Part shown: positions 5,396-62,607 of the stretch, in pieces
Layout: every line of letters starts with the position of its first letter
Position numbering within the stretch: position 1 is the first letter of the stretch
Source: Gemmatimonadales bacterium
Lineage (GTDB): Bacteria > Gemmatimonadota > Gemmatimonadetes > Gemmatimonadales > GWC2-71-9
Length of the DNA: 64,000 nt
Assembly (NCBI GenBank): GCA_035703525.1
Contig: DASSYA010000005.1
Span: forward strand, 82,532-146,531
Direction of reading: 5' to 3'
Made by a program: the position numbers and the translations under genes
Notes under the pieces: model-generated
Databases searched by the model: none
The model's input: the letters and a program-made list of their open reading frames with translations, nothing else
What the model was told of the DNA's origin: nothing

Positions 5396-5920
5396 TCACC
5401 GCGTCAGGATCGACAGGTAAGCCTGCCACGGCCCGACCTCCGCACGATACTGTTTCGCCATCACACGGGCCACCTGGGCGATGTGGCCGAGGTCGTGGAC
5501 GACCCAGGTCGCGAGGAGTTGCTCCAGGGTCACGCGTCCGAAGGCCGGGTGTTCGCCGGTGAGCTGAAGTTGATCGAGGGTAAGACTCCATCCGATGAGC
5601 TCGGCGAGGTTGCGTGCCCGGAGTTCGCTGAACCGTGCGAGCAGCTCGTCGATCGACCGGCCATTGAGCGCGTTGATCGCCCCGACCCGGTCGAACGGCT
5701 CGAATCGCCGATCCGGGCCCTGCGCAAGGATGGTGCGGGCCCGGACCACCCAGTCGCTCTCCTCGGCGCCGATCAGGTGGGCCACAATCTCGACCGGGCT
5801 CCACGTGTCGTGTCCCTCGGTAGCGTGGAGCCAAGGCGTCGACAACCCCGAAAGCAGTTCGCGAAGCACGAGCGGCGTGCGTTCGAGTACCGCGGCGGCA
5901 TTGGTGAGGTCAAAGGGCAT
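5396..5920 (-). CDS. DinB-family (DinB_2-like) metal-dependent four-helix-bundle protein
   Basis: 174 aa with spaced His residues typical of DinB-like proteins (WSPVEIVAHLIGAEE...; VVHDLGHIAQVARV). Confidence 0.7.
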   Translation of the reverse strand: MPFDLTNAAAVLERTPLVLRELLSGLSTPWLHATEGHDTWSPVEIVAHLIGAEESDWVVRARTILAQGPDRRFEPFDRVGAINALNGRSIDELLARFSELRARNLAELIGWSLTLDQLQLTGEHPAFGRVTLEQLLATWVVHDLGHIAQVARVMAKQYRAEVGPWQAYLSILTR

Positions 5921-5939: not shown

Positions 5940-7670
5940 CTACTCAAGGGACTTCAACACCGCCACCGCCGCCTTCCGCACCCGCGCCTGCCCGGCCGCC
6001 ACCTCTGCCGTCAAGTCGAGGTGCGGCAGCGTCATCTCCGGGATCGCCGCGATCGCACCGATGTAGTAGTCGCGCCAGGCAGCAATGATGGTCTGCTGCA
6101 ACGCCGCCGAGTCGGCGGCTGCCGCGATTGCCGCCCGCGAGAGTGCTCCCTCCGCGGCAAGCCGCCGCTCGGCGATCCCCGCCATCTCGATGATCGCAGC
6201 ACGAGCATACGTCGGCTCGTTGCCAGCCGTCAGGATCAGCGAGCTCGCCAGTGCACAATTCCCCACGTGCTGCAGCTCGGCGGCGCTCACCATGTCGATT
6301 CGATCGAGATCGACGTGATAGTACTGGTCGGTGAAGTGCCACATCAGCAGTCCCGGAATCCCGGCGGAGAGGAACGGGGAGTGGTCGCTCCCCCCCTCGT
6401 AGGGGTTCGCCTTGACGACCCAGCTGCCGCCGGTGGCGAGTGACTGATCGACACACCGCTGCTTGACGAAGTCGTTGAAGTAGTGCGGCCAGATGTCCTT
6501 GGCCGTCATCCGTTGGCCTTCGCCCCACTCGGTGTGCTGGTCCTCACCACGCACCCAGATCTTCGATGGATCGGGCATCTTCTCGATCAGGAAGGTGCCG
6601 CCGGTGAGCGCCGTGTTCTCGCCCACCATGTCGAGCGACATTCCCCACTTGATTCCGCGCGCCCGCACCGAATCCTCCGAGATGTAGCGCCGCGTCTGGG
6701 TGATCTCGACGCCCCAGAGCATCGTGATGGTGCGCCCCGGATCGATCTCCCCGGCTCGAAGCATCACGGCCGCCGTCCGCGCCATCTCGGCGAGCAGGCC
6801 GACACCGGTCGCGTTGTCATTGGCGCCCGGCTCCTGCACATGGGCCGAATAGACGAACCGCTCCTCCGGCGCGATCGACCCGCGGATCTCCGCCACGACG
6901 GTCCGCTCCGGCCGCTCCTCGAAGACCGACTGCACGTCGACGTGGGCACGCACCGGCCCCTTCGCCATCGCGGCCAGGAGATGTTCCTTCGACTCGAGCG
7001 AGAGGAAGATCGTCCAGATCCTGTTCGTGCTGTCGAACGCCATCGACCGGAAATTGATCGCGGTGCGATTCTTCGACTGCTGGTTGTAGGCCGGCAGCGT
7101 CTGCGCCTGCAGGATACCGATCGCGCCCTCGGGGATGGCGGTGCGGCCACGGCGCGCACCCGGTGCCGGCGCATTGATGAACACGATCTTGCCGCGCACC
7201 TCCGGACTGCCCTCAGGGACGATCTCGGCGGTGACACCGCCCGTCGGGGTGGGCCACGAGTTCGACGCCAGCATGTTGTGGTTGGTCGACCACTGCTGGA
7301 GCGGGGTCGACTCGCCCTCGAGTGTGATCGAGGCATCGAGTGGCGACCAGGCCAGCCCGCGGAGCGGACGGGACTCGATGCGGTACGTCAATCGGTCGGA
7401 GGGCTTGGCGCGATCCTCGCGCACGTAGCCGGCCGCTTCGAGGAGCCCGGCCACCGTGTCGATTCCCGCATCGAAGCCGCGGCTCCCCGGGTCGCGGTAG
7501 AACCGCTGGACGTAGTCGACGGTCGTGAACGCCCGGTCACCCGAGAGGGTCTTCCTGATCGGTTCCGTGATCGGGGCGAACGCCGGGTTGGCTCGGACCG
7601 GGCTGGCCTGCTGGGCACAGGCGAGGGTCGGGATGAACGACAGGGCGACGAGCAGGCGGAGCAGGGACAC
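5940..7670 (-). CDS. Secreted M28-family metallopeptidase (aminopeptidase-like)
   Basis: N-terminal signal peptide (MSLLRLLVALSFIPTLACAQQ), M28 metal-ligand motifs 'HVQEPGANDNATGVGLLAEMAR' and 'EGGSDHSPFLSAGIPGL'. Confidence 0.85.
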   Translation of the reverse strand: MSLLRLLVALSFIPTLACAQQASPVRANPAFAPITEPIRKTLSGDRAFTTVDYVQRFYRDPGSRGFDAGIDTVAGLLEAAGYVREDRAKPSDRLTYRIESRPLRGLAWSPLDASITLEGESTPLQQWSTNHNMLASNSWPTPTGGVTAEIVPEGSPEVRGKIVFINAPAPGARRGRTAIPEGAIGILQAQTLPAYNQQSKNRTAINFRSMAFDSTNRIWTIFLSLESKEHLLAAMAKGPVRAHVDVQSVFEERPERTVVAEIRGSIAPEERFVYSAHVQEPGANDNATGVGLLAEMARTAAVMLRAGEIDPGRTITMLWGVEITQTRRYISEDSVRARGIKWGMSLDMVGENTALTGGTFLIEKMPDPSKIWVRGEDQHTEWGEGQRMTAKDIWPHYFNDFVKQRCVDQSLATGGSWVVKANPYEGGSDHSPFLSAGIPGLLMWHFTDQYYHVDLDRIDMVSAAELQHVGNCALASSLILTAGNEPTYARAAIIEMAGIAERRLAAEGALSRAAIAAAADSAALQQTIIAAWRDYYIGAIAAIPEMTLPHLDLTAEVAAGQARVRKAAVAVLKSLE

Positions 7671-7703
7671 GCAAGAACCTCGAGAGGAGGGACGAGTGGG
7701 CCA

Positions 7704-7751
7704 GAGATCCCTCGACTACGCGCCCTCCGGGCGCTCCGCTCGGGATGACTC
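7704..7751. repeat. REP-like nested palindromic element
   Basis: gagatccctcgac...gcgccc-tcc-gggcgc...tcgggatgactc: a central 6-bp/3-nt hairpin flanked by atccc/gggat pairing. It contains the 16-mer ctccgctcgggatgac (7734-7749), whose reverse complement recurs at 17852-17867. Confidence 0.5.
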
Positions 7752-7770
7752 CTTGGAACCGGCCGGAAAG

Positions 7771-7815
7771 CTACACCCTTCCGATCAACACTCCGAGCGT
7801 GCCGAGGTCGGGTTC
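7771..7815 (-). repeat. Orphan copy of the ppk 3' end (att-like direct repeat, left)
   Basis: 40/45 nt identical to 13086-13130 in the same orientation, starting exactly at the stop codon. The minus-strand reading is EPDLGTLGVLIGRV* versus EPDRGTHGVLIGRV* in ppk. Confidence 0.8.
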
Positions 7816-7820
7816 AGCTT

Positions 7821-8151
7821 GGTCTCTTTCGCAATCTGGTACCTCGCGGTAGACTGATTCAGACCCTGACAGGGGCCCTGCCGCCTCAGGTGCCCCGTTA
7901 TCGACCCAGGAGAGTCGTTATGCCCCCCCCCCGCTCAGCCATCAGCCGACGTCTCCACACTCCTCCTGGGCCTCCACGACCAACTCCTGGCGTTGACCCT
8001 CACCGAATCGCTCGCTCGGTCGTGTCGCGTGGTTGGTGTGGCCGCGTCCTGGAACGAATTCCACGACGCACTCGATGCTCATCACCCTTCGGTTGCACTG
8101 ATCGACATCCTCGTCGGTGCCGACCGTGTGATGCCCTATCTGGGAGCCATC
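7821..8151 (+). repeat. Direct repeat copy A (331 bp): regulator leader plus first ~230 nt of the regulator CDS
   Basis: Aligns base-for-base with 9518-9851, apart from the poly-C length (10 vs 13) and 6 substitutions that I counted by eye. Confidence 0.9.
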
Positions 8152-8277
8152 CAACTACTGCGAGGAAAATCAGGGCCCTGGTTGGCAGCAGCTGAACTGC
8201 GGTTGGAGCCCGCTGGGCTAAATCCCGACCGGAGCCGGGGTCTGCCGACTGGAGAGGCCCCGGCGTCCGGACGCTGA
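7920..8277 (+). pseudogene. Truncated duplicate of the LuxR-type response regulator (first part of receiver only, then unrelated tail)
   Basis: Same SD+ATG+poly-C start as the full gene. The receiver frame (..TLTESLARSCRVVGVAASWNEFHDALDAHHPSVALIDILVGADRVMPYLGAI) is identical up to 8151, then diverges and stops at 8277. No HTH domain. Confidence 0.65.
7923..7932 (+). repeat. Poly-C tract (10 nt) immediately after the ATG at 7920
   Basis: Counted directly: atg + 10 C + gctcag. The tract length is 3n+1, so the ATG frame is out of register with the receiver frame. Confidence 0.9.
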
Positions 8278-8301
8278 GCAACACGGCAATTTCACCGAGG
8301 G

Positions 8302-9456
8302 ATGATGATGCGATCGATGAGAACATTCGGAGCCAACATGGGCTGGGTCTGCGTCCTGCTTGCTGTCATGCCGTTAAGACTCGTGGCACAGGACCTTGAG
8401 ACGGTTCTGGACGGGAGCACCTCGATCATCAGCCGCTTCACGGCGATCGGAGTTGCGCAGTCCACGATACTGGTTCCCGATCAGGACGAGAATCGAGTGC
8501 TTCTGGTCAATAGTCGAGGAGGTGCGCACCTCTCATTTGGAAGGGAGGGGTCCGGGCCGGGTGAGTTCCGCCGGATCGGCCGGCTCGGCGCGTACGGCAC
8601 CGACGGATTCTGGGTCGAAGATCGAATGCAGATGCGACTCCACCTGATATCGCCAGATGCGAAGTCCCTGGGGGAGCGACCGATTCCGACGCGGATTGGG
8701 ACGCATGACGACAGATCAGGCGCCGACTTCATGAGCAATGCAGGGGTCCGTGCTGCCTACACCGACGGATTGATGCTCGTGGAGGTCTCCGCGCCCGGCG
8801 AGCGTGCGTTCAGTGCCAATTGGACTGGCCGATCGTCGTCCGGCGACGACGTTGCTTTCGCTCTCGTGGATTCGAGTGGGACTGTACGAAGGATCGCCGG
8901 TTGGCGTCGCGGGGTCCGCCGTTGTTTCGCATCGCCCACTGGAGTCACGATGCGAACGCCGCTCTGCGCTGATCCAATTGTCGAGGTGAGCCCGTCTGGC
9001 GACAGGGTCCTGTTCATCGAGGGCGATGCTGATGCAGGCAAGGGACGATCACGCCAGTTTCAGGTCGTTATAGTCGATCGAAAGGGAAGCCCGGTCAGGA
9101 CGAGCACGATTTCCTACGCTCCGCTCCGGATCTCCGCGACGGTCCGCGACAGCATGGTCGAGGGAGTGGCGAAGGTGTTCCCGCCGGACATGGCAAAGGC
9201 GATTCGCGCAGCTCCCGTTCCGGGGTTCTTCTACCCAGTACGCACGGCGGTTGTTGCGGATGACGGTTCATTCGCACTGGAAGTCTGGGATGCAGACTTC
9301 GATCACCGATACCGGATCTTCGGTAGTGACGGAATCGAACGCCCTTCTGTCACGTTGCCGAGTAGCGATACGGTAATCGGTATGACTGGCGTGTTCTATT
9401 ACGTGCTCCGAACCGACACGGATGGGATCCAGACCCTCCTGCGCGGCCGGCGATAG
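8302..9456 (+). CDS. Secreted NHL-like / 6-bladed beta-propeller-type protein, paralog 1
   Basis: Signal peptide (GWVCVLLAVMPLRLVAQD). The 'FGREGSGPGEFRRIGRL' motif is typical of NHL/6-bladed propeller blades. Paralogous to 10624..11685 (shared GxGPGE blade motif and C-terminal 'YYVLRTDTDG' vs 'WYVMRTDKDG'). Confidence 0.7.
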   Translation: MMMRSMRTFGANMGWVCVLLAVMPLRLVAQDLETVLDGSTSIISRFTAIGVAQSTILVPDQDENRVLLVNSRGGAHLSFGREGSGPGEFRRIGRLGAYGTDGFWVEDRMQMRLHLISPDAKSLGERPIPTRIGTHDDRSGADFMSNAGVRAAYTDGLMLVEVSAPGERAFSANWTGRSSSGDDVAFALVDSSGTVRRIAGWRRGVRRCFASPTGVTMRTPLCADPIVEVSPSGDRVLFIEGDADAGKGRSRQFQVVIVDRKGSPVRTSTISYAPLRISATVRDSMVEGVAKVFPPDMAKAIRAAPVPGFFYPVRTAVVADDGSFALEVWDADFDHRYRIFGSDGIERPSVTLPSSDTVIGMTGVFYYVLRTDTDGIQTLLRGRR

Positions 9457-9517
9457 TTCATGGCGGAAGTGGCAGTGACCAGGCTGCGCGTCTGTGGTGC
9501 TCGCTCGGGGTCGTCCC

Positions 9518-9851
9518 GGTCTCTTTCGCAATCTGGTACCTCGCGGTAGACTGATTCAGACCCTGACAGGGGCCCTGCCGCCTCAGGTGCCCCGTTATCG
9601 ACCCAGGAGAGTCGTTATGCCCCCCCCCCCCCGCTCAGCCATCAGCCGGCGTCTCCACACTCCTCCTGGGCCTCCACGACCAACTCCTGGCGTCGACCCT
9701 CACCGAATCGCTCGCTCGGTCGTGTCGCGTGGTTGGTGTGGCCGCGTCCTGGAACGAATTCCACGACGCACTCGATGCTCATCACCCTTCGGTTGCACTG
9801 ATTGATATCCTTGTCGGTGCCGACCGTGTGATGCCCTATCTGGGAGCCATC
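9518..9851 (+). repeat. Direct repeat copy B (334 bp)
   Basis: See copy A. It covers the leader, SD, ATG, poly-C tract and N-terminal receiver codons of the full-length regulator. Confidence 0.9.
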
Positions 9852-10274
9852 GTGACCCAATACAGGTCGACCGCTTTCATCCTCTGCACCGCCGATCTCG
9901 ATGATCTCCTGGTGGAGCGGGCACTGGTGGCGGGCGTGGCCGGTGTGCTGGGACATGACTGCACCGCGGAGCAATTGCTCTCGGTGATCCAGTCAACTCT
10001 CCAGGGGAATGCGTGGCCCGCTGGTGTCGGCCGGCCCGCGCTGGGGCATGCCGGCCGTCAGCGCCCGCTCGTCGCCATCACGGTCAGGCAACGTCAGGTA
10101 TTGGAACTCCTCTGGCAGGGATTGACACACAAGGAGATCGCCGAATTCCTTGGCCGCGGGATCAAGACGGTTGAGGGGATCGTGGGCAAGCTCCGGAGGG
10201 CTCACGGCTTGAAGCGAGGCGAAGTCGCGCCGTGGGAGGTGATGAGGAGGGGACGTCCCTCGGGCGGCGATTAG
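9617..10274 (+). CDS. Orphan LuxR/FixJ-family response regulator (atypical receiver + GerE-type HTH); ATG separated from the receiver frame by a +1 offset in a 13-nt poly-C tract
   Basis: AGGAGA at 9605-9610, 6 nt before the ATG at 9617. Receiver frame: STLLLGLHDQLL...VALIDILVG...AFILCTAD...; HTH: 'LTHKEIAEFLGRGIKTVEGIVGKLR'. The span is 658 nt (3n+1). The ORF track only recovers 9729..10274 from an internal GTG that would lack beta-strand 1. Confidence 0.8.
9620..9632 (+). repeat. Poly-C tract (13 nt) immediately after the ATG at 9617
   Basis: Counted directly: atg + 13 C + gctcag. 12 or 15 C would fuse the ATG to the receiver frame as MPPPPAQPSAGVSTLLLGLHD... Confidence 0.9.
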
Positions 10275-10623
10275 GGAAATAAGGTGGCGGGAGGGCCTAA
10301 TGCGCCGTCTATTGAGGTAGGTACCGAAAGCGCATGGTGTCGGGTGGATGTCGAGGCTCGCTGGACGATAGCCTCCTGGCGTGTGAGCCCGGCGCTTCGA
10401 CGGACTCTGTGATCGCAACGCTCACTGCCGCGTGGTCGGTGAGAACGGGGGTTCTGTGGACGGGAAGGATTTGTTGGGCACAACCGTGAGGTGTCGTTCT
10501 CCAAACGTGACGTGGCCGAGAGAACGACGTCTTGGTTGCAGGAGGGGAGTGCTCGCGTGTGTTCTCTTGAATGTCATCCAGCTGATGTCGGTTCACTCCC
10601 AGCGGGAATGCACCTCGAAGTGC

Positions 10624-11685
10624 ATGCCCTCGCGACGCCTGAGTGGTCCCTCGAGACTCAGCTTGCGCTCCCTGGTTGCATGGCTGGCCATTTGCTCCGT
10701 TCTGCCCTGCGCTCCGTCGCTCGCAGCCCAAACCGGGGCCCGCATGTATTTCGGAGAAAATGTGGAGTTCGGGTCGGTCCTCTTCGGAGCGGAGACGCCC
10801 AATCAGGGCCTCTGTGTGATCGATGGATCAGATCAAAAAATCCTTTGCTTCGATCGAGCGGGGAAGTTGCGGTTCTCCGTCGGCCGACGCGGCGAAGGGC
10901 CCGGCGAGTCGACCGGCTTGTACCGTCTGGCGGTCTCCCCAACCGGTCGGGTGTTCGGTCTCGATTTCGCCCGTCAAATGGTGAATGTCTACGACCCGGG
11001 TGGGAAATTCGAGCGCTCACTCCGCTTGCCGATCCCTTTCAGTCAGGTTCTCAGTTTTCTCGCGCCCACAGACTCGCTTCTGGTTCTAACCGCGACGGCC
11101 TTTGATGCCGGCCGGGCTTCGGATTTCGGTGTGCACACGTTCCGCGTGTCCGACTCCTTGGTCTATCTCACCTCGTTCGGCCCATTGCCAGAAACGAATG
11201 ATCGTCGGGTACTCTCGATGTTCGGCAGTGGGATAGCGACCCTGACGCCTCGTGGAACACTACTCTACTCACGGCGCTACCCGTATGACCTGTTCGAATT
11301 CAGTCTCGACGGGACACAGGTCCTCACGGTTCAGGGACCCGTCCATCTGACCACAAGCCTGGATGAGTTGATTGAAGTCAATCGATCTGCGACAAAGACC
11401 ACGTTCAGCTATGTCGGAGCAGAGAAGCCTGAACGCGTCGGTTCGGCCTACGATGGTGGCAACGGACGATGGTATGTGATGCGGACCGATAAGGATGGGC
11501 ACAAACTCTTCGATGTCTTCGACGCGCGAACGGGCCGGTGGCTTCCCAGTATCCCGTCCCCGATTCGTGATCCAGATCTCTCCCTTTTGGGAATGGACTT
11601 CAAGAACGGGTTCTATCTCGGCTCGACTCTCTGCGATGATGCGCCGTGTGTCCTCCGGGACCCGCTCAAGATCCGCGGTCCCTAA
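10624..11685 (+). CDS. Secreted NHL-like / 6-bladed beta-propeller-type protein, paralog 2
   Basis: ORF 10432..11685. The likely start is the ATG at 10624, giving signal peptide MPSRRLSGPSRLSLRSLVAWLAICSVLPCAPSLAAQ. Blade motif 'VGRRGEGPGESTGLYRLAVSPTGRVFGLD'. Confidence 0.65.
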   Translation: MPSRRLSGPSRLSLRSLVAWLAICSVLPCAPSLAAQTGARMYFGENVEFGSVLFGAETPNQGLCVIDGSDQKILCFDRAGKLRFSVGRRGEGPGESTGLYRLAVSPTGRVFGLDFARQMVNVYDPGGKFERSLRLPIPFSQVLSFLAPTDSLLVLTATAFDAGRASDFGVHTFRVSDSLVYLTSFGPLPETNDRRVLSMFGSGIATLTPRGTLLYSRRYPYDLFEFSLDGTQVLTVQGPVHLTTSLDELIEVNRSATKTTFSYVGAEKPERVGSAYDGGNGRWYVMRTDKDGHKLFDVFDARTGRWLPSIPSPIRDPDLSLLGMDFKNGFYLGSTLCDDAPCVLRDPLKIRGP

Positions 11686-27605: not shown

Positions 27606-30600
27606 GTGTCCAATTACGCCGACGTGACCGGTAAGTTTCAAGGTGGGACATCCACCCCTGCAGGCTCCGGCCTCTCGGCCTGGTTGGCCGTGGGGGCCGT
27701 CGTGATGCTGGTGGGTGAGGTCGCGTCGGCGCCGTCGTGGCCGCTGTTGGGATTGGGGGCGCTTGTCGCCCTGCTGGTGGCGGGATGGTCCTGGCGAGGC
27801 GGCTCGCCGAGCCGGTTCGGGGTGAGCGTGGCGCTCACCGTGATGGGAATGCTCCTCGCGACCGCGTCATTCCGGCTCTGGCAGCTCGCGGCGACCCCGG
27901 ACCGTTCGGTGCGCACGGCCTCGTCGGCCGTCGTCCAGGAACGCGATCGGTTGCTCGCGACGACGGTTGCGGGTGCCCGCCAGGCGGCGAGATATGCCCT
28001 GGACCGCGCCGCCAATGTCCCGGCTGGTCAGGTGCAGGATCTCGATGATCTCCTCGTCAGCAGCGACCTGGAGCTCGGCGTGGTGGTGCTCGGCGGTGAC
28101 ACCGTGATCGCCGTGGGTGGGGCACAGCGGACTCAGCCGATCGCCGAGGGGGTGGCAGCCGCCGTGGTCACGACGCCCTTCGTCCGGAGTCTGGTGGTGA
28201 CGGAACATCGGTCGCAGCGCGAGGCCCAGGTTGCCATCCTGCTCGATGCCTCCCCCGCAGTCCCGGTCGCCGGCCCCTCCCTCGCGACACGGTCGGGGTC
28301 GATCGGGTGGCACTGGGACAGCATGCCGCCGATCTCGACGTTCACCTCCCTCGCTGACGCCCGGGTTGCGGTGCAACGGGTGATGCGTCCGGCACCGCCG
28401 GCGGTCTCGGATCTTCGCCATCGCGAGGCGGCTCGTGCCAGATGGCTGGCCCTGACCGGTGTGCTGATCATCGCCGTGATTGCGCTTGCTTCGGGAGCGC
28501 CCGCGCTCGTTCGGCTCGGAGCGATGGTCCTGCCGCTCTGGGTCCTCGACCGCACGGGGCTGGTGCCCCCGGTCGTCGGGGGATTCGCCCTCAAGGCGCT
28601 GTTGATCGGGGTGGCGCTCCTCCTGCTCGCGGTGGCGCTCTGGCGCACACCCGCCCGGCGGAATCGCCTGGGCCTCATCGCCGCCGCCATCCTGCTCGCC
28701 ATGGCTCCGTTGCTGGTGATTGCCGCTGCCAGCCGACTCTCTCCACCCGCCGAGCCGGGAACCATGCTCACCTGGTTCGCGTGGCAGGCCGTGCTCGCAC
28801 TGGGGACGGCGGCGTACATGCTGCTCGCGGCTGCGCCGCTCCGTGGGGCCGACGATGCGGCGGCCTCAGGCCGGACGGCATGGCTGGCGACCGGAGTGGC
28901 TGTCCTGGTCGGGACGCTGGGGATCCTGGCCTGGCGTCCGGCCGCCCACCCGGGGGGAGTCGGCTGGCCGCTGTGGTATCTCCCCCTCTGGCTGCTCCCG
29001 GTCGGCCTGCTCCTGGCGGTGACCTCGCCGAGCGCTCGCCGGATCGCGATCACGACCACTGCGGTGGTGCTCGCGGTGCTCGCGGCGTGGGGTGCGTCGC
29101 TGGAGCAGCGGATCGCCGCCGCCAATGCAGACCTTGACGCGCTGGCGCTCCCGGTGGACTCGCTGGTGGAACAGCCCCTCCGCCAGCTCGCCGATTCGAT
29201 CCGTGCCCGGGATGTCCACCTCCTCCCCGACCTGTACGCGACGTGGCACGCCTCGGCGGTGCACGACCTCGACATTCCGACGCAACTCGCGATCTGGAGT
29301 GACAGCGCCGTGCGTGGCTGGGTGGCGCTGGACTCGCTGGCGGTGAGCTGGGACGACCTCAAGCGCCTGGTGGTGGAGGACCGCGGCACCGCAGACATCG
29401 TCTCGCTGGCGCGAGGTGCCGGACGTCACCATGTCCTGATCGTCCCCGTGGATCCGACCACCACGGTGACCGTCGTGGTCGGACCGAGATCGCGACTGGT
29501 TCGACCGACGCGGTTCGGTCGTCTGGTCGGCTGGCGATCACCCGCCGAACCGGCGTACCAGCTCACCAGCCCGGCCGCCGCACCCGACGTGGTTGCCAGC
29601 GCGTTCGTCCGGCGAGAGCGGTTCGTCCGCGCCGATCGACTGGTCCGAGCGGGAGATGCGCCCCGCGTGGTCCGGGCGACGATCACGATGTCGACTCCCC
29701 AGCCGTTCCTCATTCGTGCCGCGCTGATCGTGTTGCTGGACATCCTCCTCGTGCTGCTCGCGTGGGGGGGGGTCCATCGGATGATGGGGGCGATGCACGG
29801 GCCGGCGACCGCGGTGTTCCGGCGGTCGTACCAGCGCACCGTGGTCACCGCCCTGATCTCGTTCTTCGTGGTGCCTGCGGCGTTCTTCGCCGTGTGGTCC
29901 GCGCTGCGCCTCCGGCAGGAGGTCTCGCGGTCGCGCGCGGCCGACGCGAGTCGGGCCCTGATCTCCCTCGCCGACGACCCGGCGCTCGCAGCGCCGCGCA
30001 CCGGCCAGCCCACCCCCATCGACCTGGCGCTGATTGCCGACCGGGCCGGCGCCGAGTTCGGGCTCTACCGCCACGGGCGCCTCGTGGCCGGTTCGCTCGC
30101 CTTGATCGCGGATCTCGGCGTGCTCGCCCCGGTGCTCGATCCTGCCTTGTTGTCGGGGGGGGGGACGGAACCGCCGCCGCTCGCCCGTCCGATGCCCGAT
30201 GCCGATGTCCGCCTCTCGGCCGAGCGGCTCGATGACGAGGTTGCCATCGCGGCCGCGCTGCCAGGGGTGGACGTCCAGCTGGCCCGGGGGCAGGTCGATC
30301 TCGCCCTGCTCCTGCTCCTTGCGTCCCTCGGTGGCACCCTTGCGGCCCTCCTCGTCGCCCGGGCCGTCGCCCGGGCGCTCGGTCAGCCGATCGAACTGCT
30401 CCGCCAACGGGCGATCGCCATCGGCCGTCGACAGCCGGCGCCCCCGCTCCGACTGCCGCCGACCGAGTTCCAACCGGTGTTCGAGGCGATCAACCAGATG
30501 GAACGGGACCTCGGCGAGAGCGAGGCCCGCCTGGAGGAGGAGACCGCACGGACGGCACGCGTGGTGGCCTGGGGAGAGATGGCACGACAAGTCGCCCACG

Positions 30601-35281: not shown

Positions 35282-35698
35282 TCAGCGTCCCTCATCCACG
35301 GTGAGTTCGAGCACCACATCCCGGGTGGCACCGGCGGGGTCTGTCCCACGCAGTGTGATCCGGTGCCGCGTTCGCGCCGCGCTGGTGTCCACGACCACCC
35401 GGATCTCGCTATCCTCGCGACTGAGGATCATCGGGGGGCGGAACACGAGGACCACGCCGGGCGGGGTGGTGGCCGAGAAGGTGATCGGGTCGTCGAAGCC
35501 CGGCTCTCGCGTCGCGAGGAGTGTCAGCGCCAGGACCTCGCCCTGGCTGATGCGCTGCACGCCGCCTTCGCGGAGTGCGAGCGTGAACCGTGGCACGGGT
35601 GGAGGCGGGGGGGGGATGAGCGATGCCACCGGGGGATTGGTGCACGCGAGGGTGAGCATGCCCACCGCGATCGCCAGCCGCCGCGTCGTGCTAGTCAT
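35282..35698 (-). CDS. Small lipoprotein with Pro-rich linker
   Basis: ATG at 35698 (MTSTTRRLAIAVGMLTLACTN: lipobox), then PPPPPPVP and a beta-rich domain. Overlaps the arfB stop by 8 nt. Confidence 0.5.
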   Translation of the reverse strand: MTSTTRRLAIAVGMLTLACTNPPVASLIPPPPPPVPRFTLALREGGVQRISQGEVLALTLLATREPGFDDPITFSATTPPGVVLVFRPPMILSREDSEIRVVVDTSAARTRHRITLRGTDPAGATRDVVLELTVDEGR

Positions 35699-44791: not shown

Positions 44792-45796
44792 ATGACCGAA
44801 CGCCTTCGTCTGGGCATTGTGGGAGCAGGAGCGATCGTGCAGGTCGGCCATCTGCCGGCGCTCAGGAAGATCCGCGAGATCGAGGTCGTCGGGGTCTGCG
44901 ACAATGACATGGTCAAGGCGCGCGCGCTCGCGGACCGGTTCGGGATTCCGGATGTCTATCCCGACCTCGCCGAACTGGTGGAGCTGGGCGGCCTCGACGC
45001 GCTCCTGGTCTGCACGCCCAACCACCTCCACGAGTCCCACGTCCTCTCCGGATTGAGCGCCGGCCTGCATGTGCTGGCCGAACGGCCGCTGGCCCTGACG
45101 TCGAGCGGAGTCCAGCAGATCACTCGCGCGCAGCAGAAGCAGGATCGCATCGTGATGACCGGCGCCAATCATCGGTACCGTCCCGATGTCCAGACCATCC
45201 GCTCGTTCATCCAGAGCGGTGAACTGGGTGACCTCGAATCGATCCGGGCCTGGTGGTTCCTCTCGCGGGTCGGTCGAGGTTCGCTCGGGTGGCGGCAGCG
45301 ACGCGAACAGGCTGGGGGGGGGGCGATGTTCGACCTGGGCCACGCGCTCATCGACATGACGCTCTGGCTGGCCGGGTTCCCCGAGGTCGAGCGCGTGAGT
45401 GCCGTCTTCCCGGAGAAGGGGAAGGGGGTCGAGCCGAGCGGCACGGCGATGCTGGCCCTCAAGGGCGGCAGCGCGATTCACCTCGACGCCTCGTGGCGGT
45501 TCGTGGGCCCGGGCGAGCGCTTCGGGCTGTCGCTGCGCTCGTCCCGCGGGTCGGCCCGGATTGCGCCGCTCGCGGTGTGGCGGGAATTCCACGGCGTCGC
45601 GCAGGATGTCTCGACCGGCGGGGCCACCTCGCGCGAAACGCCGTTCCTGCTCGGCGTGCGCGCCCAGTGGGCGCATTTCGTCGCGGCGGTACTCGGCGAG
45701 GCCACGGCGCCATCGCTCGACGAGCAGCTCATCGGAATGCAGGTGATGAATGCGATCTACCAGTCGGCCGAGGCGGGCAAGGAAATCGCCCTGTGA
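44792..45796 (+). CDS. Gfo/Idh/MocA-family oxidoreductase
   Basis: N-terminal Rossmann 'LGIVGAGAIVQVGHLPAL', 'CTPNHLH', 'EKPLA'-like 'AERPLA'. Confidence 0.85.
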   Translation: MTERLRLGIVGAGAIVQVGHLPALRKIREIEVVGVCDNDMVKARALADRFGIPDVYPDLAELVELGGLDALLVCTPNHLHESHVLSGLSAGLHVLAERPLALTSSGVQQITRAQQKQDRIVMTGANHRYRPDVQTIRSFIQSGELGDLESIRAWWFLSRVGRGSLGWRQRREQAGGGAMFDLGHALIDMTLWLAGFPEVERVSAVFPEKGKGVEPSGTAMLALKGGSAIHLDASWRFVGPGERFGLSLRSSRGSARIAPLAVWREFHGVAQDVSTGGATSRETPFLLGVRAQWAHFVAAVLGEATAPSLDEQLIGMQVMNAIYQSAEAGKEIAL

Positions 45797-53311: not shown

Positions 53312-53459
53312 TGACGAGTTGACGGACGAACACACCTGCGGGGCGTGCATATCGCGGCCAACAGGTGTACCTCTTGAAAGATCCTGAACATCCTCGGATC
53401 CCCTGACCGGAGCCTCGCCATGAACGCCCCCCCCCTCGACCACTCGTAGTCTGATTGCG

Positions 53460-54821
53460 GTGATCTGCCCGTGGGTGGCTCTGCTCGCCATCGTTGGATG
53501 TGATCAACCCGTTGGTGTCGATGGTGATCTTGGTGGTCCAGCCACCACGCCCAGTTTTTCCCTCGTCAACGATCCAACCGACATCGCAGTCTGTGGCGGC
53601 CCGGGGTTGGTCAACAATGACCGCAACGGGATCGATCGCACCTGTCTGCTGCAGGGCAACATCGGGTTGAATTTCAATCTCGCGAATGGAGTGTCCAAAT
53701 TGAACATCCTCCCCGCGATGGAACCAGGGAACCTCTTCCTGAAAGACTTGACCTCAATGCCCCTCTTGTCCGAGGTGTCATCGGGTGGAGTCCCATTCAA
53801 CGTGCACGGCTTGTCAGGTTCCAATCAATACTGCGGGGATACTCCAGGGGGCAGCGGCGGCCACGTACTCCGAGTGGATATCTGGCCGGCAAGCGATCCC
53901 GCGTGCAATAGCGGTGGCTCGGGCACCCTGAGGGAGATCGCGGCCCACGAGATGTCGCATGTCCTCGGTTGGAACGGCGGCCATGGCGGCTCACCGGATG
54001 CGGCAAACTCATTCACCGTCGGATGTGCAGCCTTCATCGACATCGGTACGGTGCCGCTGAGCTCAGCGGCGTGCCGCCATGACGTCGAGGCACTCTTCCG
54101 CGCAAAGGCCAGTACCTCAGGATGGACGCTCCCGGCGACATACGCCTATTCGCCGATTCTCTGGACTACCGATGCGCCGAGTTCCGCCTCGGTGGCGGTT
54201 GGCGCCACATCCCAGGTCGACATCACCCAATGGCTTGGGACCACCGGTGCGTCGGTCTCCCGGGGAAATTCCAGTGTCAGCTGGTTCTCCGGCGATACAT
54301 CCCGCTTCACCGTTACTTCCAGTGGCGAACTGGCAGGCCAGTCCGTCGGATCGGCCAAGCTCTACCTCAAGGCGCCCGCCTCGACGGCGGGATACACCAT
54401 CTGGACACCCTTCACGGTCAATGGCGATTCGCTCACGGTTCAGGTCAGTCCACCCGCCTATGTCGTCACCTCGGACCAGACTCCAATCACGTCCGAGGGG
54501 TATCACACCTTCACATCACATGTCGGCGATCCGGGATCGAGTCGCGTCTGGTCGGTTGACGACAGCAGGACGATTTACACCGTGCCGGACACGACGTTTT
54601 CAACTCCGGGCAACGAAGCGATCATCTGGGTCGGAGCAGGCTCCTATACCCTCCGATTTGGGGTCCTAGGCTCCTACCAGGACATCCCCGGGTGCACCGG
54701 CGGTGGCGATGGGTATGCCGCTCAACTCCCACAATCGAAGACGTCGACCGGTATCCAGAAGAAGCCCACGGGGCCGGTGCCGAATGCCGTGGAGGGGTGT
54801 CCACCGGGCGGGGACCAATAG
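53460..54821 (+). CDS. Lipoprotein with zincin HExxH motif (metzincin-like variant) and Big_2-like Ig domain(s)
   Basis: GTG start. Lipobox 'LLAIVGCD'. 'IAAHEMSHVLGWNGGH' is encoded at 53946-53984. A Big_2-like stretch 'VSWFSGDTSRFTVTSSGELAGQSVGSAKLYLKA'. No family assigned. Confidence 0.6.
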   Translation: MICPWVALLAIVGCDQPVGVDGDLGGPATTPSFSLVNDPTDIAVCGGPGLVNNDRNGIDRTCLLQGNIGLNFNLANGVSKLNILPAMEPGNLFLKDLTSMPLLSEVSSGGVPFNVHGLSGSNQYCGDTPGGSGGHVLRVDIWPASDPACNSGGSGTLREIAAHEMSHVLGWNGGHGGSPDAANSFTVGCAAFIDIGTVPLSSAACRHDVEALFRAKASTSGWTLPATYAYSPILWTTDAPSSASVAVGATSQVDITQWLGTTGASVSRGNSSVSWFSGDTSRFTVTSSGELAGQSVGSAKLYLKAPASTAGYTIWTPFTVNGDSLTVQVSPPAYVVTSDQTPITSEGYHTFTSHVGDPGSSRVWSVDDSRTIYTVPDTTFSTPGNEAIIWVGAGSYTLRFGVLGSYQDIPGCTGGGDGYAAQLPQSKTSTGIQKKPTGPVPNAVEGCPPGGDQ

Positions 54822-61146: not shown

Positions 61147-62607
61147 TCAGGGCTCGCCGGATCCTGGGGTGGTCACGAAGTAGGGCCGACCCAGCCGCCG
61201 TCCATCGGCATCCGCCGCTTCGCGGGTCGGATATGGCCCCACCACGACCCGAAATCCCTCGCCAGGTGCCTTCGGATCGAGGACCTTGGCCCGGAACCCG
61301 ATTTCGGTGAGTTGGCGGGCAAAGGCCCGAGCATACTCCATGTTCTGGGAGGACGAGACCTGGATGAAGACCCGCTCCGCGGCAGCGGCGGCGGTGCTGT
61401 CGGGAGAGGTCGCGGCGTCGTCAGCCCCCTCGTCGCTGGCGAGCGTCCCGGCGGAGTCGGTGGCCGCTGGGGTATCCGCCAGGTCGGGTGTGTCACCGAT
61501 CGGGGCGGTTCCCGAGGCCGGCACCCATGGCAATTGCAGGAATCGATCCTTGGCGGCCCCGGCCAGCCGCGTCCGCGCCGTGGGTGGCGAGGACATGATA
61601 TCCCACGCCACGATGTCTTCGCCCGAGCGCACCACGAGTGTCCGGCCACCGCTCACCAGCGGCAGGTCCTCGGCCCAGGGCGCCTGGATCGTGGCCACCC
61701 GCTCCTGGCGAACAAGATCGATGAGCCAGAGTGAATCCCCAGCGGTAGGGCGGGCCAGGAGCCAGCGTCCCGAGCGGTCGGGCCGCAACTCCTTGGCCGA
61801 TCCGGGGAGCGCCAGCGTGGCGAGCTCGTTCCATCCGAATCGGTCGAGGAAGACCAGGTCGCCGCGCGCTCGTGCGACGTACAACCGATGCGCGGATGGC
61901 GAGAACGCGCTGGTGATCGGCATGCCCTTGAGCCGGATGAACTCGGGCGGGGTCTCATCGCTGGGGTGGACGACCACCAGGCCGCTGTCGGTCGTGATCA
62001 CCTGGACATCCCCGAACCAGCTCGAGGCCAGCTCGCCGGCCGGGACACGGAAACTCCGGACGATGCCATCCTCGTTCCGGACCTCGAGTCGCTGGCCGGC
62101 CGCGGTATAGGCCGCGAGGCCGGGTGAGAGGCCGGGGGCTCGCACCAGTCGGGCATCATTGCCCGGCACCCGATCGCCCTTCAGGACGGTCGCGGTCCGG
62201 CCACGAAAGATCACCGGGCGTCCGGTCGAGTCGATCGCGAGGACGGAGCCATCGGCGGTGCCGGTAATGCGGCGCACATCGGTCAGGTAGGTCCGCTCGC
62301 GGCGTGCGAGCAGGTCGAGTCCGATGACCTCACCCTCCGCATCGACCGCGTACACCATCCGGTCGTCGAGGTCGGTGCCGAGGGCCCGAACGATCGGGGC
62401 CATGCGGCCACGCATCTCCCAATCGAGTGGGGTGAGGGACCGGGCCTGATACAGCTGGGCGACCCCGCCCTCGGCCGGGAGCCGGAGCAACGACCCCTCG
62501 TCCGGGATGCCGGTCGGCAACTCTCGTGGTCCCCGGAGCGGCACATCGCCGCCACAGCCCGCGAGGACGGCGAGGGCGAGCAGGCCGAGTCGTGTTCCCC
62601 CCCCCAC
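61147..62607 (-). CDS. Lipoprotein with beta-propeller-like middle region and C-terminal SPOR (peptidoglycan-binding) domain
   Basis: The GTG at 62607 overlaps the upstream TAG by 1 nt. 'GGGTRLGLLALAVLAGCGG' lipobox. C-terminal 'VFIQVSSSQNMEYARAFARQL...GFRVVVGPYPTREAADA' is SPOR-like. The rest of ORF 61147..62997 overlaps the upstream gene. Confidence 0.7.
   Translation of the reverse strand: MGGGTRLGLLALAVLAGCGGDVPLRGPRELPTGIPDEGSLLRLPAEGGVAQLYQARSLTPLDWEMRGRMAPIVRALGTDLDDRMVYAVDAEGEVIGLDLLARRERTYLTDVRRITGTADGSVLAIDSTGRPVIFRGRTATVLKGDRVPGNDARLVRAPGLSPGLAAYTAAGQRLEVRNEDGIVRSFRVPAGELASSWFGDVQVITTDSGLVVVHPSDETPPEFIRLKGMPITSAFSPSAHRLYVARARGDLVFLDRFGWNELATLALPGSAKELRPDRSGRWLLARPTAGDSLWLIDLVRQERVATIQAPWAEDLPLVSGGRTLVVRSGEDIVAWDIMSSPPTARTRLAGAAKDRFLQLPWVPASGTAPIGDTPDLADTPAATDSAGTLASDEGADDAATSPDSTAAAAAERVFIQVSSSQNMEYARAFARQLTEIGFRAKVLDPKAPGEGFRVVVGPYPTREAADADGRRLGRPYFVTTPGSGEP

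Follow-up and report, generated by a model that had tools for sequence, protein, structure and literature searches.

What becomes of a regulator gene when a long run of cytosines stands between a well-placed ATG and the reading frame that the ATG seems meant to open? This question is raised by an atypical NarL/LuxR-type response-regulator gene in a 64,000-nucleotide stretch of a Gemmatimonadales genome (GenBank assembly GCA_035703525.1, contig DASSYA010000005.1, positions 82,532 to 146,531), which we call the window and whose own coordinates are used below. An initial annotation of the window proposed that a run of 13 C at the second codon uncouples a strong Shine-Dalgarno (SD) sequence and ATG from the receiver frame, an arrangement typical of contingency (phase-variable) loci. 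Comparison with orthologues suggests a different cause. The run appears to have its inherited, in-frame length, and a point substitution beside it, TTG to TTA, would have removed the start codon and created the ATG at the same time. The reading that we favour, with a probability of about one half, is that the window carries a recently start-less (OFF) allele of an inherited, in-frame and slippage-prone poly-C regulator 5' end.

Start site and C run of the regulator gene

The features at the start of the gene, all on the plus strand, are as follows (nt, nucleotides).

9603..9610, plus strand: SD region CCAGGAGA, including AGGAGA at 9605-9610, 4 nt before the TTA and 6 nt before the ATG
9615..9617, plus strand: TTA codon of the receiver frame, where the orthologues have their TTG start; its A (9617) is derived
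9617..9619, plus strand: ATG arising from the same G-to-A change; it lies in the CCC frame, one base off the receiver frame, and is GTG in orthologues
9620..9632, plus strand: C13 tract, read in the receiver frame as the last base of TGC (Cys) and then four CCC (Pro)
9617..9805, plus strand: out-of-frame open reading frame of 62 residues, MPPPPRSAISRRLHTPPG...*, the expected product of ribosomes initiating at the ATG
9615..10274, plus strand: full-length frame of the atypical NarL/LuxR-type response regulator, without a canonical start, 219 codons plus stop
9729..9731, plus strand: GTG, the first canonical in-frame start and the basis of one pipeline's 181-residue call
9852..9854, plus strand: internal GTG with GGGAG at 5-nt spacing, the start of a 140-residue call (P0002)

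The receiver frame (..ESLCPPPPAQPSAGVSTLLLGLHDQLL..) is open from 9567, after the TGA at 9564-9566, and from there to 9729 it contains no ATG, GTG or TTG. The AGGAGA at 9605-9610 is followed by GTCG, TT, the ATG at 9617-9619, the C13 run at 9620-9632 and GCTCAG (GCTCAGCC). In these respects the locus is as the initial annotation had described it: the SD, ATG and C13 are in place, the ATG frame gives a Pro/Arg-rich product of 62 residues ending at 9805, and the truncated copy of the same 5' end, which lies upstream (copy 1), has an ATG at 7920 followed by C10 at 7923-7932. Its frame arithmetic also holds, since a run of C12 or C15 here, or of C9 in copy 1, would bring the ATG into the receiver frame. 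It is the proposed cause, the length of the run, that our comparisons do not bear out.

Orthologues carry an in-frame start and runs of one frame class

A word-indexed search of 5.8 billion clustered proteins returned two orthologue clusters only, with 64-66% identity over the full length, and an exhaustive profile search gave only four further family representatives below E = 1e-30. Judged by these searches, the regulator family is small and lineage-specific. Both orthologues share the synteny of the window, with an opposite-strand M28 peptidase gene on one side and ppk on the other, and their proteins (P0001 and P0003) begin MCPPPPAHQSSGVPTVLLGLHDQ and MCPPPPPAKQSSGVPTVLLGLHDQ, that is, MCPPPP(P)A. 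In the DNA of contig L001 the start region reads AGGAGG-tctt-TTG-TGC followed by 12 C, which makes a C13 run, and in contig L002 it reads AGGAGG-tcac-TTG-TGC followed by 15 C, which makes a C16 run; a second sample (L007) again gave C16. The TTG is the only canonical receiver-frame start in L001 and L002, and at its position both window copies carry TTA. CCAGGAG is kept in the window, L001 and L002, and the strong SD of the window is best read as one that ancestrally served the TTG. In the orthologues the last base of the TTG is also the first base of a GTG in the next frame (TTGTG), and a G-to-A change of this shared base also makes an ATG (TTATG). The run opens with the third base of a Cys (or Gly) codon, so that an in-frame run has the length 3n+1. 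The initial annotation had taken the 3n+1 lengths of both window copies for a slipped OFF state, whereas relative to the orthologues' TTG this is the ancestral, in-frame length.

A further allele comes from L006, a JGI metagenome contig from a second strain of the window's species, which does not have the duplication. It is 99.76% identical to the window over 6.6 kb rightwards from the run and 95-98% identical leftwards. It reads ...CCCTGTTTTGG-C22 (TTTTGG-C22), a count that is uncertain by a base or more in this short-read metagenome contig, and about 35-41 nt including the SD (CCAGGAG) and the start are missing. Like the window copies it has no canonical receiver-frame start, and its nearest TTG (5879) is out of frame by one missing C. 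The run lengths at the site in the five alleles are thus 10, 13, 13, 16 and 22, every one 3n+1; by our calculation this would occur by chance, without a constraint on the frame, in about (1/3)^4 = 1.2% of cases. In the comparison of relatives that the initial annotation had proposed, the lengths do vary (13, 16, 22), but they all fall in one frame class. The run is a hypermutable simple repeat in a 5' coding region, as at contingency loci, and C13 and C22 differ by 9 C between strains that are 99.76% identical downstream.

The search for further alleles ended mostly at the tract itself. A scan of genome contigs gave only the L001 contig again and L004, a contig of a Gemmatimonadales metagenome-assembled genome that ends 54 nt after the tract site; the L001 record is labelled 'Actinomycetales', and the labels of the nearest records thus disagree. 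A metagenome scan gave only a 29%-identical regulator, and exact-protein look-ups with the M28 peptidase, the 384-residue protein, the 313-residue protein and ppk led to contigs stopping at the repeat borders or to L006 again. The Logan contigs of the window strain end before the tract. Related contigs (L004 at its position 1, L010 and L011 at their ends) stop a short way past the tract site or some 26-28 nt inside the repeat; the locus thus appears to resist assembly systematically and to be poorly represented in public protein sets.

Selection on the regulator frame

Is the region between the run and the first canonical in-frame start still coding? Over the 32 codons from the run to the equivalent of 9729, L001 and L002 differ in the receiver frame by 10 synonymous and 4 non-synonymous codon differences, and 11 of the 15 base changes fall at third positions. 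Read in the CCC (ATG/GTG) frame, the same comparison gives 1 synonymous and 12 non-synonymous codon differences (12-18 across the orthologue comparisons). These 32 codons evolve as receiver-frame coding sequence, and translation must therefore be in the receiver frame by the run at the latest. We also considered the CCC-frame open reading frame as a gene in its own right and rejected it: its length is not conserved (62, about 29 and 7 codons, the last in L002, where it stops early) and nearly all of its substitutions change the amino acid.

Within the species, the window and L006 differ in the regulator by 5 nucleotides, all of them synonymous, and the 213 residues from run to stop are identical. 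By chance all five would be synonymous with a probability of about 0.002, which rises to 0.023 when the three clustered sites are treated as a single event. This makes an old dead gene, one of the two alternatives that the initial annotation had wished to see excluded, unlikely. Copy 1, by comparison, has two private substitutions at family-invariant residues, Gly to Asp at 7949 and Ser to Leu at 7994. Purifying selection has thus acted on the complete copy until recently, while the fragment is in decay.

The same data bear on the view that the protein starts downstream, at GTG 9729 or 9852, as an N-terminally truncated regulator without AQPSAGVSTLLLGLHDQLLASTLTESLAR, the tract being a mere 5' leader in this species. 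Gene callers did choose these starts, giving the 181- and 140-residue products, and GTG 9852 has a good SD-like sequence. All five synonymous differences between the window and L006 lie downstream of 9729, which falls short of proving continued translation of the first 32 codons. Against this stands the strong constraint on these codons in the orthologues, and in the window lineage the upstream part is less diverged (about 7 of 38 residues by our count, versus about 35% overall). GTG 9729 has no SD ahead of it. Moreover, positions 11-13 of the family profile align with residues 3-6 of the VraR, DevR and NarL structures, so a start at 9729 would remove beta-strand 1 and (most of) alpha-helix 1, in agreement with the earlier claim that beta-strand 1 would be lost; the products would be without beta1-alpha1 or without half of the receiver fold. 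We give this view very little credence.

Proposed origin of an OFF allele and points that weigh against it

The favoured reading, a recently start-less allele, can be put as a sequence of events. In the ancestral layout an SD would be followed by 4 nt, TTG, TGC and (CCC)n, encoding Met-Cys-Pro4-5-Ala, with an in-frame run of 3n+1. The run would mutate fast through slipped-strand mispairing, and the surviving changes would be those that keep the frame. In the window strain a single G-to-A transition, TTG to TTA, would then have removed the only in-frame start, and the same transition would have made a strong decoy ATG (TTGTG to TTATG) that leads ribosomes into a meaningless frame of 62 codons. 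The regulator would be OFF or nearly so, standard translation giving the 62-residue peptide, and any residual output would come from a spontaneous +1 slip of tRNA-Pro on CCC-C beside the start codon, at a level of about 1%. A contraction by one C (C12) would offer a route of reversion, as it would couple a better start at a better spacing to the receiver and yield MPPPPAQPS... The layout of the site, the TTG of the orthologues, the tract lengths and the patterns of substitution are observed; we infer that TTG is used as the start in the orthologues, that the window allele is OFF and that reversion by slippage is possible. Since purifying selection on the reading frame is still visible within the species, the loss of the start would be recent.

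Several observations weigh against this reading. L006 is also without an in-frame start, through a different lesion, yet the protein is conserved between the two strains; two independent losses of the start under purifying selection leave room for a non-standard mode of expression. The alleles that retain the SD (both window copies, L001 and L002) all have a start in the CCC frame that abuts the run (ATG in the window, GTG in the other two) at the more favourable spacing of 6 nt, and the SD-to-start spacings across the window are too noisy to separate a TTG at 4 nt from an xTG at 6 nt. Distant members of the family often start Met-Pro-Pro (P0022 and P0025: MPPASPTEPTILLALPD and MPPVPAAVPTVVLALPD), so that the xTG may have come first and the TTG may have arisen later, rescuing a +1 change in the tract. 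Finally, the tract is known from three lineages only, and the comparative statistics given above are correspondingly thin.

Possible programmed frameshifting at the C run

Some of these observations also fit a conserved programmed +1 frameshift. Ribosomes would start at the abutting xTG and stall on the poly-Pro codons, and peptidyl-tRNA-Pro would slip on CCC-C into the receiver frame. The slip would be obligatory for expression of the regulator, and the run would set the regulator's level, acting as a sensor of EF-P/tRNA-Pro m1G37 capacity or, together with the overlapping TTG/GTG starts, as a frame-buffering device, all of which seems to us very unlikely. The five alleles share the form (CCC)n-C-GC, in frame with an upstream start codon, and offer four to seven consecutive CCC-C sites, as a slippery site requires; no context is known to be more prone to shifting than CCC-C at codon 2 (PMC4519876). 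The abutting start 6 nt past the SD is shared by the window, L001 and L002, with GTG to ATG a conservative change; the coding sequence is conserved in the window and L006 although neither has an in-frame start; and the Met-Pro-Pro beginnings of the wider family fit as well.

However, the in-frame TTG makes a shift unnecessary in L001 and L002, so it is not required in all orthologues, and L006 has neither the SD nor the abutting start. None of the known stimulators accompanies the run: the codon that follows it in the 0 frame is CGC, a common one, and a stop comes only in L002, one codon later. A search of Rfam over 7600-10500 returned 0 matches at E <= 1, and the predicted folds are not conserved. 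In the window the leader and tract form a fold in which the SD pairs with a downstream CUCCUGG (z = -2.2), whereas L001 gives z = +0.15; we dropped this SD-pairing fold because it is not conserved in L001. The measured efficiency of such slips is about 1% (PMC4519876), and after one slip the ribosome would still stand on CCC-C and could slip again.

Two CTCCTGG / CCTCCTGG motifs (9660-9668 and 9684-9690) within the first 25 codons match the SD region CCAGGAG (9603-9610) by complementarity and pair with it in this predicted fold; L001 does not conserve them.

Transcriptional slippage was also considered as the main rescue and was down-weighted. Such slippage typically needs A or T runs of 9 or more. 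The run is long enough, but it consists of C, and in Escherichia coli and Buchnera the homopolymer insertions were all in A/T runs, G/C runs being reported as not slippage-prone (PMC5574713).

Is the regulator phase-variable?

A working phase-variable locus, as the initial annotation envisaged, would use the ATG as its start and one-base slips as its switch, with C12 or C15 as the ON state, the consensus sequence representing the OFF majority and the tract maintained by selection. The tract is indeed highly mutable (C13 and C22 between strains, C10 and C13 between copies), and each strain is one C away from an in-frame start, the window needing one fewer for its ATG and L006 one more for the TTG at 5879. 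The coding frame is under purifying selection, as would be expected of a gene that is switched ON from time to time. Long C/G runs abound in the genome, and one of them (at 53427, described below) has lengths one base apart in assemblies of one and the same strain; precedents exist in bvgS (PMC1891110) and glpK (10.1101/717272). On the other side, no frame-changing length occurs among the five alleles, all of them 3n+1, although such lengths define a contingency locus; the ATG is owed to a strain-specific point mutation, so a switch here would be new and accidental and not an inherited design; and the 5.8 billion clustered proteins hold no record of a variant of 218-219 residues beginning 'MPPPPAQ...'. 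Overall, we regard a working switch as rather unlikely.

Of the earlier proposal, then, the slippage-prone tract (C10/C13/C13/C16/C22) and the lack of a start coupled to the receiver stand, while no change of length other than by multiples of three was seen. We do not class the locus as a demonstrated contingency locus, because frame-changing length alleles are unseen and the break of the start has a different cause; it is a hypermutable coding homopolymer at the 5' end of a regulator.

Homopolymers in the window and the sequencing-error question

The other alternative named at the outset was an error in the sequence. If the true sequence were ATG-C12 or TTG-TGC-C12, the gene would be intact and the puzzle an artefact of sequencing or assembly. 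Runs of at least 13 are hard for every platform, the related contigs L004, L010 and L011 break at or near the region, and the C22 count of L006 is especially uncertain. The two copies of the repeat also share 100 identical bases upstream of the run, over which polishing reads could be misassigned from one copy to the other.

The other homopolymers of the window speak against such an error. Long C/G runs are about ten-fold enriched, with 19 C9 matches versus 1.98 +/- 2.1 in dinucleotide-preserving shuffles, and all the related loci that we recovered have a long C run at exactly the tract site. The other 11 runs of at least 8, except that at 53427, lie inside a spanning open frame with a coding-type GC content at third codon positions, among them the G10 of dnaJ (752-761), which has Pfam domains on both sides, and a G8 in the open frame ...EIRAGTGGDEAGLF.... 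The in-frame state of these long runs shows that homopolymers are not miscalled as a rule, and we rejected systematic homopolymer error as an explanation. In addition, both copies carry the A, the 3n+1 length matches the frame class of independent assemblies from other projects, and the base that makes the problem, A 9617, is not a homopolymer call. An artefact at this site is thus highly improbable.

Except for the regulator tracts and the run at 53427, the long runs encode Gly or Pro runs, several of them at lipoprotein N-termini (examples are at 752-761, 30155-30164, 45314-45323, 35607-35615 and 62597-62605). On the minus strand, from 62607 downwards, a GTG start is followed by G8 (MGGGTRLGLLALAVLAGC), and at 35607-35615, also on the minus strand, a Pro run lies a few residues past the lipobox Cys.

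The window holds a second poly-C run at a 5' end (53409-53462), where GGAG is followed by 7 nt, an ATG at 53420, AAC, G and C9 at 53427-53435. The frame of this ATG stops at the TAG at 53447, and the lipoprotein-like open reading frame ..RSLIAVICPWVALLAIVGC.. (GTG 53460-54821) is open from 53424, so that the ATG would be in frame with it only at C8 or C11. In two other assemblies of the same strain the tract has C9 and C10 with identical flanks, a one-base length polymorphism. We did not accept this locus as proof of a genome-wide 'one C too many', as the tract varies between C9 and C10 and the signal peptides of the orthologues fit GTG 53460. As these signal peptides are short, the tract may lie in a 5' untranslated region; alternatively, it may be a better candidate for a contingency locus than the regulator.

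The repeat and the surrounding island

The regulator's 5' end is present twice in the window, on either side of another gene, and a short motif stands upstream of the complete copy.

7822..8153, plus strand: repeat copy 1, with TTA/ATG at 7918-7922, C10 at 7923-7932 and the first 74 receiver-frame codons after the run (7933-8153), after which it breaks off
8302..9456, plus strand: gene for a secreted protein of 384 residues, without a Pfam match, between the repeat copies; absent from L006
9522..9853, plus strand: repeat copy 2, the 5' part of the complete regulator gene
9545..9552, plus strand: GGTAGACT, in our alignment the sole upstream motif that is invariant in all five alleles

The two copies form a direct repeat of about 332 bp and differ by five substitutions and by the 3-nt difference in the run. 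In sample L011 (SRR30616678) a DsbA-like gene and a small open reading frame lie ahead of the 384-codon gene, and homology to the window starts at 8146, at the end of repeat copy 1. A variable island, with a different gene content in every relative, separates the M28 peptidase gene from ppk, and the identity between the window and L006 jumps from 95% to 99.76% exactly at the C run. The repeated 5' ends of the regulator look like products of recombination or deletion within this island.

The invariant motif GGTAGACT may contain a -10 element (TAGACT), which would give it a role in a promoter, and a simple scan with the sigma-70 consensus found no promoter in the region upstream of the regulator. 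A terminator-like hairpin at 9505-9519 (TCGGGGTCGTCCCGG with a T-rich tail) follows the 384-codon gene and immediately precedes repeat copy 2. The 45 nt upstream of repeat copy 1 (7771-7815) match L001 at 11246-11290, beside the 3' end of ppk, with 91% identity, and may represent a small dispersed element.

The regulator protein

The frame that the start-less allele would leave untranslated encodes a receiver domain followed by a GerE-type helix-turn-helix, as in the NarL/FixJ group. It is 64-66% identical to P0001 and P0003 over its full length. The Pfam matches are both slightly below threshold, Response_reg with 25.6 bits (cut-off 30.2) and GerE with 23.0 bits (cut-off 23.5), and the family profile aligns end to end with the VraR, DevR, DesR and NarL structures at E = 5e-23 to 8e-19. 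The phosphorylation pocket is incomplete: Asp64 and Thr86 are kept, the acidic pair is His-Asp (Pro-x in more distant family members), and the Lys is replaced by His (GHD) throughout the clade. Judged by these residues, the receiver domain is atypical. No histidine kinase gene adjoins the regulator in the window, L001, L002 or L006, distant kinases not having been searched for; its neighbours in these four are the M28 peptidase, beta-propeller-like secreted proteins, small open reading frames and ppk.

Comparison with known systems and significance

How does this locus compare with regulators known to vary through homopolymers? Such a switch was unfamiliar to the initial annotation in LuxR-type regulators of high-GC environmental bacteria, but homopolymer phase variation of two-component regulators as such is already known (PMC1891110, PMC8355987). 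By analogy, the closest known case is Bordetella pertussis, in which a C6/C7 tract in bvgS switches a two-component regulator and many long C/G tracts are found at envelope and lipoprotein genes (PMC1891110). Both are poly-C runs in the coding region of a two-component regulator gene of a high-GC bacterium, and in bvgS it depends on the run length whether the full-length protein is produced. Unlike in bvgS, where alleles differing by one C switch the frame and the run lies inside the gene, the alleles here keep the frame, the run occupies codons 2-6, the start codon is broken by a point substitution, and the lineage is uncultured, environmental and known from sequence alone. In Campylobacter jejuni the regulators flgR/flgS include a response regulator that is turned off by mutation at short homopolymers (PMC8355987), but these tracts are A/T and shorter than 7, and their mutations are described as largely non-reversible and were seen under strong selection, in contrast to the long and conserved C tract at a start codon described here. 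Mycobacterium tuberculosis glpK has a 7C tract that undergoes a reversible frameshift (10.1101/717272), which likewise places a coding poly-C run in a high-GC organism outside classical phase variation; glpK, however, is a metabolic gene with a short internal run whose plus/minus-one variants were observed directly, and none was observed at our locus.

Another comparison concerns decoding. The window context, AUG-CCC-C, resembles that of the EF-P/m1G37 reporters, and a +1 shift would enter the receiver frame; unlike in that setting, the orthologues of this regulator need no shift. We know of no natural gene that depends on a CCC-C +1 slip at its second codon. In the Escherichia coli reporters, the spontaneous +1 shift of tRNA-Pro on CCC-C near the start is an error process of about 1%, dependent on EF-P/m1G37 (PMC4519876). 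The locus is also like frame-preserving coding repeats, in that its length changes by multiples of three and the number of Pro residues in the N-terminal extension ranges from 3 to 7. Such repeats usually have units of three or more nucleotides, however, and a mononucleotide run held in frame by selection is less usual.

In summary, a start codon with an out-of-frame homopolymer behind it can mislead when it is read from one genome; here the length is, by comparison with orthologues, in frame and the lesion appears to be a neighbouring point mutation. The locus documents a poly-C run of 13-22 nt at the first codons of a regulator whose position is conserved and whose length is hypervariable, in an uncultured high-GC lineage. 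If switching or shifted decoding proved true, contingency- or recoding-type control would be extended to environmental bacteria and to atypical orphan response regulators. If neither does, the locus would be a clean natural example of hypermutable coding repeats held in frame by selection, and would also show how overlapping start codons (TTGTG) can alter the tract lengths that are permissible.

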